Assembly (NCBI GenBank): GCA_964106645.2
Contig: OZ067043.1
From: Podarcis pityusensis
Lineage: Eukaryota
DNA: 64,000 nt
Direction: 5' to 3' (one strand)
Below, one piece after another: positions 15,699 through 56,459 of this stretch. The first letter of the stretch is position 1, and every line of letters begins with the position of its first letter. The notes below the pieces were generated by a model. That model had not been told where the DNA came from. It worked only from the letters and a program-made list of their open reading frames with translations, and made no database searches. The translations under genes and the position numbers were made by a program.

Positions 15699-15818
15699 TC
15701 AGAAGATAGTAGTCTCATACTTAGTGCTGAGGGTCCTCTTGGAATCCTGCTTGGGCTCTACAACCCAGGACACACTAGCATGGGACTGGGAGTCTTGGTC
15801 CACTTCAGATGGCTCGAG
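15699..15818 (-). CDS. ANKS1A: ANKS1A terminal coding exon ([39 protein letters not shown])
   Basis: ttttctAG acceptor; 39 codons + TGA; ANKS1-family C-terminus. Confidence 0.93.
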
Positions 15819-16762: not shown

Positions 16763-16861
16763 CTTAGCTCCTTGACTAACAGATTGCAGCGGCAGATAGG
16801 AGGGACGGTGTGTAGTACAGGTGTGACAGTAACAACAGCGACTATCGGGAGGGAGCGGCAC
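16763..16861 (-). CDS. ANKS1A: ANKS1A cassette exon (VPLPPDSRCCYCHTCTTHRPSYLPLQSVSQGAK)
   Basis: Long pyrimidine tract ...gttcctcAG, AAG|GT donor, 99 nt, phase 0/0, no stops. Confidence 0.75.
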
Positions 16862-17917: not shown

Positions 17918-18088
17918 TGCTGATTTCCTCATGCTGGCTCGAGGTTTAGGCACCGGTTTTGAAGATTTTGTTTCTATCATTTCAGCTGTCAAAGCACCTG
18001 GAGGTTTTGATTTTTGGGCTTGGAGGGCCAGCTGGTAGGCTACTTCAAATGCTTGTCCCAATGTCAGAATGATTTCATATGTTAGATT
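17918..18088 (-). CDS. ANKS1A: ANKS1A exon, PTB C-terminal helix
   Basis: [26 protein letters not shown]...[17 protein letters not shown]; AG/GT. Confidence 0.95.
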
Positions 18089-19609
18089 CTTGAGAAAAGA
18101 AACACAAAGTATAACTTACTTCAGAAAGTAATGCCAAGAGTTATGATGCTAGTCTCTTTCTACAAACAAAATGAGTGCTGAGTGCTGTCTGGTATCTTGA
18201 AGACCATTTTATATCACAATCCTGTGTGTAAAAAGTAGGGAATAAGCCCCATTTTGTATAATGAGGTAGTGATGGCCATTGGGACAGGTAGGGCAGAAGG
18301 CTGGAGGCAAACAGTAGGTGGAGCTAGAGCAAATGACAGTCTAGAGTTGGCTAATTCTAGCTTTGCCCTCATCCTCCTCTCCACCACATGGACTAAAGAG
18401 GGGGAAGCTGTGAGCTCCCAACTTCATTTATTTCATATACTTATATACAGCTTCATATGAAAAATGTATCTAAATGGTTTACAAAAATATTATACAAGAT
18501 ATATCCACACAACAACAACACCAGGTAAAACAATAAAATCTCCCTAAAGCAAAATGTAACAGCACACTTTGAAAATATCTCAAGAGTCAGTAGACATGAC
18601 TCAATAGCCTTGCCACCAAGTACCTGTAAGGTGGATGGAGGATCAGAGATCTACGGTCATCTGGACCCCACCCCACCCTTCTTTGGAGAGCAAAGCCACT
18701 GTGGAAATACAAAGTTTGTCTGAGCAAACAGCTTCTGAGGGGTACCTTTTAAAGTTATCCCTTTGTTCTGTGTGACTTTGGGCTGGCTGACACCAGTCAC
18801 AGGAAAGAAATGATTCTGCCATAAGAAGCAATTCTGCCCAGTCAAGACAGGCTACTTCCCTAAGCTTTGTGAGGCCAGTACTGGTATTGCACAACTGCCT
18901 TGCTCTCAGAACTTAGGAGCTCCTCTGGATTAACAACTGTGGATTGACCTGGCAATTGAAGAGTTTCTGGCAGGCTTAAAACCCAGCACTTTTTGCACAA
19001 CTGTCTGGCAGTTCCAGAACAAAAATACTGGTGAGGGCACAGAAAGGGCAAAGTACATTTGGGGGTAGTGAATTTGAAAAGTATTTCCACTGTGTAACCA
19101 AAAGTAATCAAGTAATGAATGGGAGGTGAGCAATTTGTATGGGAAGACACTCTATTCCCCCACCCCACTATGTTGCCTATGGCTGCAGTTAATGTCCAGG
19201 GTTGTGACAAAAAGCAGAAACATACTTCAGAATTCTGTGCAACATACCTAGCTCTGCCATGAAAATCTTTTTTATCATGCAAGTTCTAAAATCCAAATAT
19301 AAAACATTTGATACACCTCCAGTATTTACTTCTCACTTCCTACACATTATACCCTATATTTTGTAGAGAAAGCACTGGATTTTTAAATGTGTTAGAGTAC
19401 CGGGACTGCTAGCCATTTCACATTCAGGGCAAAGAAACTCTGGAGGAAAAGCCAGCATATGTTGCTTAAATCCTTGCACCCCATGTTTGCGTATATGAAT
19501 TACCAGCATTCCAAAAGCTTTTTGCTGCAAACCAACTACCTACAGATTATTTTTAGCAAGGCAAAATGCAAAGCAAAGAATCAAGCCATTTATATTCTAC
19601 ATGACTTAC

Positions 19610-19747
19610 TACATCAATGGTACTGAAGACATGGCAGTAGTGGTGGCTAGTTTGCAAGTCCTTTGTGATATAGGCAAATGTACAGAGATCCTCCGGGTCC
19701 TGTGCAGCACATGAGATGTTCCGGATTTCGTGCTCAGCAATAACATT
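19610..19747 (-). CDS. ANKS1A: ANKS1A exon, PTB domain
   Basis: [46 protein letters not shown]; AG/GTaagt. Confidence 0.96.
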
Positions 19748-20076
19748 CTGCCAAACGGAAACAAACAGCTTTTTTTGCTCAGTAACTGAGATTATCTTAC
19801 GAAAACACTATTCACAATAAAATAACTTTTTTTAAAATTTATTTACAACTAAATAACAACTAAGATTTTGGGTTAGAATACCCTGGGTGGTATTCAACTA
19901 ACTTTTACTCAGAGCAGATCCATTAAAATTAGTGTCTATGACTAACTTCAGTCCATTGTTTTCAATACGTCTACTCTGAGACATTCTTTCAGCAACAAAA
20001 GCAGCGTCCAAATACAGACAAGCACTATCTGAAAAACTGATACAAGGGAAAAATCAATCTCTACCTAACTTCTCTA

Positions 20077-20442
20077 CAGTGGTGCCCCGCAAGACGAATG
20101 CCTCGCAAGACGGAAAACCCGCTAGACGAAAGGGTTTTCCGTTTTTGAGTTGCTTCGCAGGACGAATTTCCCTATGGGCTTGCTTCGCAAGACGAAAATG
20201 TCTTGCAAGTCTTGAGATTTTTTTTTTGCTTTTCCCCCCCTTTATCTAATCTGCTAAGCGTTTAATAGCCTTTAATAGCCTTTTAGCAGCTAATCCGCTA
20301 AGCCTTTAAGCCTTTAATAGCCGCTAAACCGCTAATAGCGCTAATCCGTTAAGCCGCTAATAGGGTTGCTTCGCAAGACGAAAAAACCGCTAGACGAAGA
20401 CTCTCGCGGAACGGATTAATTTCGTCTTGCGAGGCACCACTG
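20077..20442. mobile_element. Tc1/mariner (Tigger-like) MITE
   Basis: TA|cagtggtgccccgcaagacgaa ... ttcgtcttgcgaggcaccactg|TA. Confidence 0.9.
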
Positions 20443-20592
20443 TAGTGGCAATTCTTACAGGATTTACCATGACATTTTGATGTATTTACTGATAAGGAAT
20501 GGGTAGTTGCATAACAGATTAATTTCCATGATGTACTGTCACTTGACATTCAAGATTTTAAGTATTAACTACAAGCTTAAGATCGTTCTCAC

Positions 20593-20679
20593 CTTGTTAG
20601 ATGCATCAATGAATTTCACTCCTTTGTAAGTGATAGATAATATTATAGTTGGGGTCTTCTTCATATGCTCTGTTGATTT
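20593..20679 (-). CDS. ANKS1A: ANKS1A exon, PTB domain
   Basis: [29 protein letters not shown]; AG/GTgag. Confidence 0.95.
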
Positions 20680-21103
20680 CTTTGTAAAAGAAAAAAACTC
20701 ATTAAGAGGCATGATTAAAACATTTCTCAGGATGGAGTATACAGGCAAGTTGTTTTTTTAATCCGCATCAGGTTTTGGAAGAACTATGCTAGGTTTTTAA
20801 AGATACATTTTCAAGGCAATGAAAATTCAGTGAAGTATATATATAATATATACACAACAAGGTATAATCAGACTTTACACACCCTAGCAGTAAATACTGC
20901 ATACCAGCTGAAAACATATTTGCCAAACAAGTTGACTAAAACAAGGTAACAGATAATTGTAGGGCAATTACGAAATTTCGAAGTTTTGTGGTTTGGCTAT
21001 TATATCTTGTGCTTGCAGCAGCCTCCAAATCTTGAGCTACACAACACATTTTACTTTTCAAGACTGGTATCAGAAGTTTTGATTTTACACAGTGCACACC
21101 TAC

Positions 21104-21175
21104 CCTCATCTTTGCACAGGCATCCTGTGTAGATTCTGTCCCTCGAAGATCTTTGATTAACATGGAACCTAGATA
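21104..21175 (-). CDS. ANKS1A: ANKS1A exon, PTB domain
   Basis: [24 protein letters not shown]; AG/GTagg. Confidence 0.95.
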
Positions 21176-21354
21176 CTGTTTGAAACAGGGGAACAGTAGC
21201 AGCAACTATTAACACTAATATTTGTACCCCAAAAGATGAGAAGATATTCTTGCTTCCAAAAGGAACCAGGCAATCTTATAAACTTCTGCCTGGATAAGGC
21301 CAAACTGTACTAAGTAAAAGCTATTATGTAAGTGGCAGGACCATGCTTTCCAGC

Positions 21355-21487
21355 AAAGATGGGAAATATGTTGCCTTCAAATCTTGTTGAATTGCAGTTC
21401 CCAGTAGCCACAGTCAGCATAGCCAACGGTCAGGGATGATGGAGATTGAAGTCCTACATCTGGAAGATCTCAGGTTCCTCATCCATG
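21355..21487. mobile_element. Degenerate palindromic hAT MITE (family of 58953-59088)
   Basis: ...cagttcccag...ggtcagggatgatgg...acatctggaag...caggttcc. Confidence 0.6.
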
Positions 21488-21524
21488 CTTTACAGGAAGA
21501 ACCAAGATTATGCACCAGATGAAT

Positions 21525-21852
21525 TAGAATCATAAAATTGTAGAGTTGGAAGGAATCTCAAGGGTTATCTAGACCAATGCAGAAATCACAGCTTAAAAAT
21601 CCCCCAACAGATGGCCATCCAACCTGTTTAAACCTCCAATGAAGGAGAGTCCACCACCTCCTGAGGTAGTCTGTCCTACTGTTGAACAGCTATTACCATC
21701 AAAAACTTCTTCCTAGTGTTTAGTGGGAATCTTCTTTCTTGTAATCTGAATCCATTGGCTTGAGTCCTCCTATCTGGAGCACCAGAAAACAAGCTTGCTC
21801 TGTCTTCCATGTGACAGCTCTTTAGATATTTGAAGATGGCTATTATATCAAC
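21525..21852 (-). mobile_element. CR1 LINE 3' fragment
   Basis: tagaatcat...tagagttggaagg...gatggccatccaacc...ggagagtccaccacc, reverse complement of a CR1 3' end. Confidence 0.8.
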
Positions 21853-21882
21853 CTCAATTTAATTAATCTAGAATATACTTAC

Positions 21883-22008
21883 ATTGGCTTCATACCCACA
21901 GGATTCAAATATAAGCTTCTCTGGTTGATGCTGCCAGTGTTGGACAGGGGCATAAGCAGCAGCCAGACTAGGGGGTCTGAGTGTAAGTTTAGATTCACGG
22001 CGTTCCTC
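21883..22008 (-). CDS. ANKS1A: ANKS1A exon, start of PTB
   Basis: [42 protein letters not shown]; AG/GTaagt. Confidence 0.95.
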
Positions 22009-23426: not shown

Positions 23427-23591
23427 CTGTGCCTTGAGTCTCTCTGTTCTGGGGTATGATGCAATGTCATGGCTGCTCTCATGTCTCTTCTTTCCAGCAT
23501 CCCCCAAAGGCAGCAGGAGATCTGCAGATCTCCCTGTACAAGAGTCACTCTGGCTTAGGGGTGAAGACGTCTGGGATATCAAATCCTGGCA
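23427..23591 (-). CDS. ANKS1A: ANKS1A exon, SAM-PTB linker
   Basis: [28 protein letters not shown]...RTERLKAQ; AG/GT, phase 0. Confidence 0.92.
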
Positions 23592-24171: not shown

Positions 24172-24279
24172 TCTTAGCTGAGAGAACCGTGGTGGTTTCT
24201 GTGGGGGCTCCTCATATGGTCTGTCTGCCAGAGAGGCTATTATACGCTTACGATGGCCAATAAGATTTACCTTAAGTAC
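24172..24279 (-). CDS. ANKS1A: ANKS1A exon, end of SAM2
   Basis: [36 protein letters not shown]; AG/GTgagt. Confidence 0.95.
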
Positions 24280-24427: not shown

Positions 24428-24577
24428 ATTTACTAGTTCTAGTTCCCAGAGGTTTTTCACAGAGTCTATAGAGCTATAGCCACTCGACAAAAACGATTGA
24501 ATATAATCCTGCAGCCCCAGGGAGTCAAGCCATACAGGAACAGAAGGCTGAGTCCCATCACAGCCCAGAGATTTCAC
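24428..24577 (-). CDS. ANKS1A: ANKS1A exon, SAM2
   Basis: [50 protein letters not shown]; AG/GTaagt. Confidence 0.95.
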
Positions 24578-27437: not shown

Positions 27438-27536
27438 CTTAGGAAGAGACCGTGCTGCCTGAAGAAGTTTTCTGCGATGCTGTGGGTCACTAATACCAAT
27501 CTCTCGAAGGTCCTGATCTTCCATGACATTACTGCC
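27438..27536 (-). CDS. ANKS1A: ANKS1A exon, end of SAM1
   Basis: [33 protein letters not shown]; AG/GT. Confidence 0.95.
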
Positions 27537-47011: not shown

Positions 47012-47118
47012 CAGGAAGCGAACATCATCAAAGCCATTGAGAAGCAGTTTGCTCTCATACTGCTGTAAGCCGATGGACTCCAGCCACTCCCCAACACTCT
47101 GCTCCAGCATCCGTGAAC
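47012..47118 (-). CDS. ANKS1A: ANKS1A exon, start of SAM1
   Basis: (G)[35 protein letters not shown]; ctctcgtcAG / GTaagt. Confidence 0.96.
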
Positions 47119-47227
47119 CTGACGAGAGAGGAATCGGCAGACGCTTGAAAAAGGAAAACCCATTAAGGCGGTAGCAGCGGCACTCTGAGGAAGACAGGTG
47201 GCATTGCCACATCATAGTCATTACCAT
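47119..47227 (-). CDS. ANKS1A: Putative alternative N-terminus of a short ANKS1A isoform ([36 protein letters not shown]), in frame with the SAM1 exon
   Basis: Four in-frame ATGs, open frame across the acceptor; resembles the MMWQCHLS start of short AIDA-1/ANKS1B isoforms (recalled, not searched). Confidence 0.7.
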
Positions 47228-49059
47228 AAAGAAGCCAAACCAAGGCCAGAGTACAACAATTAGCTGACAGACAGTTCCTCTTCTGTACACAAACCATGAA
47301 CAATAAGCTTCTGTCCTGTTCAAACTAGAGCGTTAATCGGTCTCCCGGTTATACTCAAACAAACTCTGAATCCAAGCTGTTTAGAACCATTCCTGGGGCC
47401 AAGGCATCACATGCACTGATTTTCTGGCTCAAGTGTGCTCCTCGCCAGGCAAAAGCATCCCAAACCTCACAAGACTCCTGGGTCAGCTCCTTGTTTCATC
47501 TGAGGGGGCTGAAAACTTTCCAAGGCAACATTCCAAGCCAAGGCTACAGGCACGAGAGACAAGAGAGGGCCAGCTCACAAATAAACACAGCCCAGCAGAT
47601 GCTTGCATCCATGCAACTTCAGATGCATTACCTTGTACAACAGGCCAGTAAGGAAGACTGTTAGCACTGGAGGTGCAAAGCAGTTAGAGAGAAAATACAT
47701 CTTCATGCAGCTGAGAGAGACAAACAGACACGATGGGTGTTCAGAAAAGCAGCAGCAGCCAGATTAGTGAACAGCTGTCCAAAGGAAGACATGCAAGACA
47801 AATAAAAACAAAAACAAAAAAGACAAACTGCAGTAGAAGAATAAAGATTTATACTTTTTTTCCCCCAACAGTCCCGGAACAGGCAAACCATGGTACGGGC
47901 TTTTCTTTGTTATTTTATTATAAGGAGTGGAAGCATGAGGGACAACAAGCCTGAGCTTGGAAGTCCTGCCACTGTCATTTTATCATCTATCCAGATGCAT
48001 GACATCCTGACAGCCGGTATTGACTGATCTGGGCTGGGAACCAGCGTCAACATCTAAACTGGAACAAATAAGTATACCGGAGCATCCAGTCTGAGCAAAA
48101 AGATAAATGGTCAGCTCATTTTCCACCCAACATGCCTGCTCCTGCCAGTTCTTTGTTGACTTGTATTTGCCCGTCCTTCATTTTCTTCCACTAAAGGCAA
48201 GTACTACCTTCAAATTCCTTACTGAGATAATGAACAGCTTTCAGAACAAAGCATCTTAGCTCGTTGGTTTAAGGGGGTGAGGAAAGCCAAGCAAGATGAA
48301 CACGCCCCCTCCCCTTTTCTCCGCAGCAGATAGGGTTAGATATGTCCTGGCACCTCCTTTCAGCTGGTTAGTCAGAAATAAATTCTTCCAAGAGCCCCGT
48401 AGAAGCTATATGGAACGCCTCTTCTTCCCTCCACACATCAGAGGAGAGTCTAGGAACTTGTTACTTTCCCTGTGCAGAACTGGTGATATTTGATGAAGCA
48501 AGGAAAGTTCAGAGCCCACGTCTTTGCAGTCCTCAGAGGAATTGCTATGCAAGTCACGCAGAATTTTCTCAGTCTTCCTAGCATGTCCGTCACTGAAGGG
48601 CATTTGCAAAATATTGATGAGGACACCGGGGTTGCAGTCTTTGAACCCTGTGGTTATCAGAAGTTCTGAACATCCTAAACTAGCCTCCACCCCTTTCTTT
48701 CCAGACTGCCTACACAATGCAGTGCTGGCTATTATCTGAACAATCGAGGGGTTAGAGATCCTGTTACGCTGGCCTTCAGAAAAGATCCTCTGTTAAGCAA
48801 GTCAGTGTTAATGAGTGCTCGGGAGCTGGCCAGCCTTCTTAATGCATACTGCAGCACAAGGGATGCAGCACTCACAAAAGATTTCCTCCTCCCTTCTCTG
48901 ACAAAGCCTGGGCAAAGGGACAGCATCTATATCCCCAAATTCCAAGCAGCAGGCTCTTGCTAGCCAGAGATTCTTTCCTTATCCAGGGCTGATTCCTTTC
49001 TACTCCATAAGCAGGCAAAAGGACTCTGGTATTTTCCCAGGCAAGCATGTGTCCCTTTC

Positions 49060-56392: not shown

Positions 56393-56459
56393 CTGAAATC
56401 CTCTGCTGTTCCTGAGAAAAGTCAATGCCTTCACCAATGGAGCTCATTATTTTTTCAAT
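56393..56459 (-). CDS. ANKS1A: ANKS1A exon preceding SAM1
   Basis: [22 protein letters not shown](G); tttttcAG / G|GTacc; phase 1 fits the 47118 acceptor. Confidence 0.93.

Follow-up and report, generated by a model that had tools for sequence, protein, structure and literature searches.

An ancient alternative N-terminus predicted for ANKS1A (Odin) would place the gene beside its paralog ANKS1B among the sources of AIDA-1-type short isoforms

The feature described here lies on the minus strand of the window (the whole stretch of 64,000 nucleotides that was analysed, from Podarcis pityusensis contig OZ067043.1), within the squamate ANKS1A (Odin) gene. The predicted product shares 451 of 479 residues with snake ANKS1A against 279-286 with ANKS1B, which identifies the gene as ANKS1A, and the ortholog tree agrees. 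In a structure search, the SAM part likewise found ANKS1A (5zry, E 6e-22) as its best match, with ANKS1B (2kiv) at 4e-12. Translation from 47227 to 47012 runs without a stop from a leader directly into the first SAM1 exon, inside an open frame extending over 47332-46937 (minus). The 109 nt 5' of the SAM1 acceptor are thus in frame and open, and they encode the peptide that a sequence-only reading of this DNA had quoted for the supposed intron. The features are as follows:

56393..56459, minus strand: ankyrin-bearing (long-form) exon 5' of the leader, joined to 47118 with the leader skipped
47228..47650, minus strand: conserved non-coding region 5' of the start, presumed 5' UTR/promoter, aligning to bird and anole translations with changing frames and stops
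47163..47297, minus strand: out-of-frame upstream ORF of 44 codons, overlapping the start cluster in Podarcis
47210..47227, minus strand: four in-frame ATGs (47227, 47221, 47215, 47212)
47119..47227, minus strand: predicted coding leader of the short isoform (36 codons and one further base); intron and polypyrimidine tract for the long form
47012..47118, minus strand: first SAM1 exon, common to both forms, with a phase-1 acceptor for the long form and a GT donor
27438..27536, minus strand: second SAM1 exon
24428..24577, minus strand: first SAM2 exon
24172..24279, minus strand: second SAM2 exon with HRKRIIASL, equivalent of the AIDA-1 NLS helix, left out in some short models of both paralogs
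23427..23591, minus strand: linker exon, missing from many short models
17918..22008, minus strand: PTB domain and flanks in five exons (22008-21883, 21175-21104, 20679-20593, 19747-19610, 18088-17918)
16763..16861, minus strand: Cys/His-rich cassette exon of 99 nt (33 aa), after the PTB domain
15699..15818, minus strand: last coding exon, ending in YETTIF and a stop, with a tail identical to that of short ANKS1B

The leader begins at the four-ATG cluster and comprises 33-37 residues, depending on the ATG used, with cysteines at positions 4, 11, and 13 when numbered from the last Met. A purine occupies position -3 of the last three of the four ATGs, and MMWQC is the start common to fish and ANKS1B. 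For the long form, exon 56459-56393 joins in frame to the AG acceptor before 47118. Pyrimidines account for 22 of the 30 nt preceding this acceptor, a value typical of the gene, in which the 12 other acceptors scored ranged from 14 to 24 of 30. The earlier proposal that the pyrimidine tract doubles as coding sequence therefore stands, provided that the leader is translated.

An exon model for the short form, assembled from window coordinates, has GT-AG boundaries in 10 of 10 introns, contains zero internal stops, includes the HRKRIIASL motif, and ends in YETTIF. Its product comprises 483 aa from the first ATG or 479 aa from MMWQC, plus 33 aa with the cassette exon, reproducing exactly the 479 and 512 aa expected from the earlier reading. 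The anticipated SAM-SAM-PTB-YETTIF product is borne out by this model and by a domain check of the 479-aa snake ortholog, which has no ankyrin repeats, compared with six ankyrin stretches in the 1190-aa form; the architecture of the short product is accordingly SAM-SAM-PTB. The cassette exon (16763-16861, minus) has a counterpart in a cobra model. AlphaFold2, run on a 77-row alignment led by the snake ortholog, gave confident SAM-SAM and PTB predictions and pLDDT values below 50 for residues 1-35. Low pLDDT in itself is no proof of disorder, but it suggests that the leader fits a linear signal better than a domain.

Upstream of the ATG cluster the picture changes. The bird-lizard alignment continues for ~420 nt 5' of the ATG, passing through frames 2, 1, 2, and 3 with stops, and the upstream extension of an anole model meets a stop and a frameshift in the lizard window. 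Because the upstream alignment shifts frame and carries stops, coding constraint can be placed from the ATG cluster onward. Longer upstream starts (anole MSCLG, bird MLCAH, and a salmonid 91-residue extension) were considered as the general start and rejected, as each is limited to its own clade and that of the anole is disrupted in the lizard. The overlapping upstream ORF (47297-47163) could possibly act as a translational damper; in birds, the ATG homologous to its start shares the frame of the main ORF. Acceptor-like sites 5' of the ATG lie at 47774, 47710, 47666, and 47543, none of them in frame for the long form. Four TGCATG motifs, which we take to be RBFOX-type, occur in 47415-47795 (minus), within 600 nt upstream, a number that ties with the densest 1 kb in the window. 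This region, with its TGCATG motifs and acceptor-like sites, may contain 5' non-coding exons or take part in splicing control.

The leader is strongly retained in ANKS1A proteins. Its 40 residues are identical to those of an anole model, and in a homolog search with residues 1-40, 128 of 130 candidates passed. Among the 120 of these 128 matches that were listed, identity ranged from 64 to 100%, every gene name given was ANKS1A, and the species covered basking shark, teleosts, squamates (snakes), birds, a marsupial, and placentals. Across 26 distinct ungapped ANKS1A leaders, W2, C4, S9, C11, C13, Y14, S20, and P26 (counted from the last Met) are invariant, and position 6 holds L, V, I, F, or M. 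Cys4 is kept in 38 of 38 distinct leaders, and Cys11 and Cys13 in all 26 ANKS1A leaders, with the latter two lost in tetrapod ANKS1B. Over 156 ANKS1A rows, the Trp-to-SAM1 distance is 39 (84 rows), 40 (65), 38 (6), or 37 (1), with rows P0015, P0072, and P0097 unclassified and outside these counts. Length differences among the retrieved leaders are whole codons only. Protein searches return in-frame copies only, and broken orthologs would escape them. Within that scope, the ortholog conservation predicted earlier is supported at the protein level, from shark to mammals.

Several rows depart from this pattern. Vesper bats and two relatives (P0054, P0056, P0105, P0321, P0322) show a one-residue leader deletion and faster change. 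In P0015, from an ENA contig, an ANKS1A leader is joined to unrelated PF28598 sequence, probably through chimeric assembly. Four rows (P0020, P0171, P0322, P0326) end in STN instead of YETTIF and would lose the presumed PDZ ligand. Among teleost anks1ab-type models of at least 330 aa (P0085, P0112, and P0355-P0368 among them), an ankyrin motif was found in 0 of 55, in a retrieval biased by the query, and salmonid anks1ab-type isoforms labelled X1 also have the leader. One teleost duplicate may thus retain only ankyrin-free forms, as far as these models indicate.

Could this conservation be non-coding, reflecting splicing or promoter elements before the SAM1 acceptor, with the open frame and the database isoforms as by-products? 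Conservation between bird and lizard does extend upstream at the nucleotide level, and the ANKS1A short entries are predictions. However, the leader resembles the proven coding N-terminus of the paralog, the exchanges at position 6 are conservative, length changes among the retrieved rows are confined to whole codons, and frame changes are limited to sequence 5' of the ATG, which makes a purely non-coding explanation extremely improbable. Another alternative is that the leader represents a 3' extension of the SAM1 exon within the long protein, inserting a Cys-rich peptide through an acceptor at 47184 or further up. An in-frame AG with 14 of 20 pyrimidines is indeed present within the leader at 47184, and ankyrin-bearing sequence is joined to part or all of the leader in P0100 (king cobra), P0051 (basking shark), P0080 and P0082 (salmonids), and P0063. 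The king cobra gene model uses the 47184 acceptor, which could give long Odin 22 extra residues. However, leader conservation begins at the Met cluster, upstream of the 47184 acceptor, and ends abruptly before that cluster; the ankyrin-bearing models enter the leader at different points in different species; the homologous Met is residue 1 in curated ANKS1B isoforms; and the acceptor-like sites at 47543, 47666, 47710, and 47774 are out of frame for the long form. An extension of the long protein is therefore very unlikely as an account of the leader, and an alternative N-terminus remains the preferred reading.

The relationship with ANKS1B (AIDA-1) supports an N-terminal role and indicates great age. 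ANKS1B was absent from the 120 of 128 matches listed in the first homolog search with the leader; ANKS1B leaders were gathered through a full HMMER scan and a shark query. The scan, covering 1.84 billion proteins, returned 54 matches at E<=0.001, of which 15 were ANKS1B-type, including one named catshark ANKS1B; a repeat protein (P0148) among the 54 was spurious and was dropped. Curated ANKS1B isoforms that start with the homologous leader include human NP_001339126.1 and mouse NP_852063.1 and NP_001170869.1, and the curated short isoforms are listed alongside BAC/BAE accessions. When the window leader was compared with eight ANKS1B leaders, 14-20 of 33 residues were identical, and each pairing beat 20000 of 20000 shuffles. 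The likeness to the short AIDA-1 N-terminus claimed earlier thus holds as homology, but not in its details: mouse ANKS1B begins MMWQCHP, not MMWQCHL, and in ANKS1B three residues rather than two separate the Tyr from GYS.

Gene structure points the same way. The Trp-to-SAM1 spacing is 39 in 117 of 118 ANKS1B rows, the long-form splice junction occupies an identical position in ANKS1A and ANKS1B, and in 264 of 264 parsed rows the codon split by the acceptor is preceded by S, T, A, I, or P, each of which a YAG acceptor permits. In both paralogs, contig ORFs span the leader and the SAM1 exon and continue into the intron, showing that the leader is contiguous with the SAM1 exon in genomic DNA. At the homologous junction, ANKS1B long forms (P0263-P0310) carry a 4-residue insert of ETTR/HTTR type, which occurs in none of the ANKS1A long forms retrieved. 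In unrooted trees of 23 chosen rows, ANKS1A and ANKS1B were split with support of 100/100 for the body and 96/94 for the leader alone, and cartilaginous fish fell on both sides in the body and leader trees; the shark ANKS1A row in these trees is an ankyrin-bearing model. Because leader and body trees both divide the two paralogs with cartilaginous fish on each side, a pre-duplication origin is favoured and later conversion is disfavoured. The named matches included no cyclostome or invertebrate outgroup. It is thus very likely, from these comparisons, that the leader start predates the ANKS1A/ANKS1B duplication, as the earlier reading had proposed.

The basic helix of SAM2 is also shared with short AIDA-1; helix 5 of SAM2 has been described as the AIDA-1 NLS (PMC10252437). 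The expectation that the short product keeps HRKRIIASL agrees with the exon model, but the motif is not specific to this isoform, as an identical helix is present in long Odin and some short models skip it. Joint skipping of the HRKR exon (24172-24279) and the next exon (23427-23591) was found in 7 ANKS1A and 14 ANKS1B short models; the HRKR exon was kept in 36 and 77, respectively, and 13 rows were unparsed. The skipping models come from pika, little owl, pond turtle, and serow for ANKS1A, and from shark, teleosts, and birds for ANKS1B. This distribution suggests an ancestral splice switch for the nuclear signal that is common to both paralogs.

Databases already contain this form. A short ANKS1A isoform is predicted in RefSeq/UniRef for Pituophis, Anolis, Puma, Athene, Emys, Macrotis, Amphiprion, and others, so that the isoform can no longer be called hidden, as it was at first, given automated models across many vertebrates. 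Examples are:

XP_070797607.1, Pituophis X4 (479 aa): predicted short ANKS1A model
XP_062835756.1, Anolis X12: predicted short ANKS1A model
XP_025781257.1, Puma X2: predicted short ANKS1A model
A0A1A8ALA9, Nothobranchius: predicted short ANKS1A model

These entries represent the same isoform as that of the lizard (451/479 identical for the snake model), but their names are automated and carry no link to AIDA-1 or to a function, and some are stretched to non-conserved upstream ATGs. All short ANKS1A entries encountered were predictions (XP_, genome-project, or unreviewed UniRef records), with 0 NP_ records, and the database matches included none named as a short ANKS1A entry of human or mouse. 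A study of the short leader form of ANKS1A was not found in the accessible text of open-licence papers and preprints, and the available portions of PMC2584000 and PMC4699217 make no mention of it that could be found.

Among characterized proteins, the closest counterparts are the short AIDA-1 forms (AIDA-1C/1D/1e; NP_001339126.1, NP_852063.1), named here as a group. In them, too, a homologous leader extends the SAM1 exon on its 5' side with equal spacing and acceptor position, and they likewise lack ankyrin repeats and have a SAM-SAM-PTB architecture, the HRKR helix, the same optional exons, and, in most forms, the YETTIF tail found in the lizard product. In contrast, the ANKS1A short form keeps three cysteines where tetrapod ANKS1B keeps one, and in amniotes the ANKS1A leader is four residues longer, with two additional ATGs. 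Expression, PSD enrichment, and nuclear import, all documented for AIDA-1, are putative for the ANKS1A short form. The predicted product is the ANKS1A paralog rather than AIDA-1 proper, although it may work like AIDA-1. Compared with full-length Odin, the short form shares all exons from SAM1 onward, lacks the ankyrin repeats and the long linker, and gains the leader; that linker carries most known phosphosites (PMC2584000, in the part available). An LTR2B-driven 593-aa ANKS1A isoform of ape extra-embryonic mesenchyme, detected by western blot according to the accessible text of PMC12082684, is also an ankyrin-less SAM-SAM-PTB Odin from an internal promoter. However, it occurs in apes only, begins at long-form residue 542, and has no new leader described in that text, whereas the leader form is gnathostome-wide and has its own N-terminus.

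Taken together, the leader is best read, with a probability of roughly 0.72, as the coding start of an additional ANKS1A transcript, whose product would be an adaptor of 479-483 aa with the order SAM-SAM-PTB-YETTIF and without ankyrin repeats, corresponding in ANKS1A to short AIDA-1. We infer that the leader is very probably translated. It also probably begins a transcript of its own, whose 5' end would come from an immediately adjacent upstream promoter or from non-coding exons joined to the leader at an acceptor-like site (47543, for example). A transcript starting within the intron would carry the leader and the SAM1 exon as a single unit, and translation would begin at one of the four ATGs, which the upstream ORF overlaps in Podarcis. 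Ankyrin-based cargo capture would be lost, and the PTB, SAM, and tail contacts would be retained. The YETTIF tail is identical to the AIDA-1 tail at the sequence level, its last residues presumably form a PDZ ligand, and binding to PSD-95 is putative. Short Odin could therewith be a trafficking/scaffold adaptor whose cargo differs in range from that of long Odin, or it could compete with long Odin. According to the accessible parts of the sources, the ankyrin repeats of long Odin bind the EphA2 kinase domain and its PTB domain binds Sec23 (PMC5027278), SAM1 of Odin binds EphA2-SAM (PMC9499636), and ANKS1A binds LRP1 NPXY motifs (PMC10733300). There is a somewhat better than even chance that the ankyrin-free protein acts as a receptor-trafficking/scaffold adaptor through its PTB domain (NPxY cargo, Sec23), SAM1 (SAM domains of EphA receptors), and the PDZ-binding tail.

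The unfolded, Cys-rich leader might in addition serve as an S-palmitoylation membrane anchor, a tentative proposal in which the invariant Cys4, within a hydrophobic/basic and apparently unfolded N-terminus, would be the palmitoylation site. Palmitoylated short N-terminal leaders are present in PSD-95 alpha, GRIP1b, and GAP-43. These proteins share with the ANKS1 leader a short Cys-bearing alternative N-terminus, a likeness by analogy. No paper on palmitoylation of ANKS1B was found by title or abstract opening. A zinc site formed by Cys4, His5, Cys11, and Cys13 was considered and set aside, as ANKS1B does not retain His5, Cys11, and Cys13 throughout and the leader has no predicted fold. Entry into the nucleus would be conditional, with inclusion of the HRKR exon as the switch.

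The earlier reading proposed a synapse-to-nucleus adaptor. On the model advanced for AIDA-1d, the short form would be a postsynaptic protein confined to neurons that moves to the nucleus when NMDA receptors are active; this alternative keeps the isoform of the preferred reading and departs from it in tissue and function. The leader, the basic SAM2 helix, and the YETTIF tail are all common to short AIDA-1, and the four TGCATG motifs within 600 nt upstream point weakly in the same direction. Short AIDA-1 forms are described as brain-only and PSD-enriched in the available text of PMC6684583 and PMC4565644, and Anks1a was found in mouse PSD fractions in that of bioRxiv 10.64898/2026.05.20.726457. 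However, the helix is identical in long Odin, and its retention is therefore not isoform-specific. In the accessible parts of two lacZ gene-trap studies, signal was reported in ependyma, fading after P10 (PMC4443284), and in brain endothelium (PMC10733300). The trap site is given as the 14th intron of the 25-exon mouse gene (PMC4443284, available text). Counting back from the window's 11-12 exons would put the SAM1 exon near mouse exon 14 or 15, and the trap could therefore fall on either side of the leader start. The same preprint describes, in its available part, recruitment of Anks1a into synapses and an action on EGFR. That text makes no use of the word 'isoform', and its CRISPRi cut the signal by ~95%, in a readout that may or may not detect the short form. 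The accessible portions of the literature yielded no nuclear data for an ANKS1A short form. A neuron-specific synapse-to-nucleus role modelled on AIDA-1d is thus unlikely.

A bolder synthesis would make the short form a second AIDA-1 in vertebrates, that is, a membrane- or synapse-anchored short Odin with a palmitoylated Cys leader as old as jawed vertebrates and a nuclear-signal splice switch in both paralogs. As a whole this is doubtful. If true, a lipid-anchored short Odin would survive knockouts of 5' exons and CRISPRi aimed at the promoter, might account for the Anks1a detected at the postsynaptic density, and might buffer the effect of ANKS1B haploinsufficiency, and the leader would explain the targeting of short AIDA-1 forms.

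The more limited conclusion, drawn from sequence comparison, is that this leader is a real and ancient alternative N-terminus, by which ANKS1A joins the genes with AIDA-1-type short ANKS1 isoforms in a form that databases already predict. In the accessible parts of the literature, Odin is treated as a single ankyrin-bearing protein, and short forms are ascribed to ANKS1B. If short Odin is expressed, exon 3 knockouts (described in the available text of PMC10733300) or targeting of the main promoter may spare it, and gene-level expression and proteomics would blend two proteins of differing cargo preference. The isoform behind synaptic Anks1a (bioRxiv 10.64898/2026.05.20.726457, available part) would then need naming, and short Odin would become a modifier candidate for the ANKS1B neurodevelopmental syndrome. 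The leader has remained nearly unchanged in both paralogs since before the shark split and must therefore have a function, in AIDA-1 as well.
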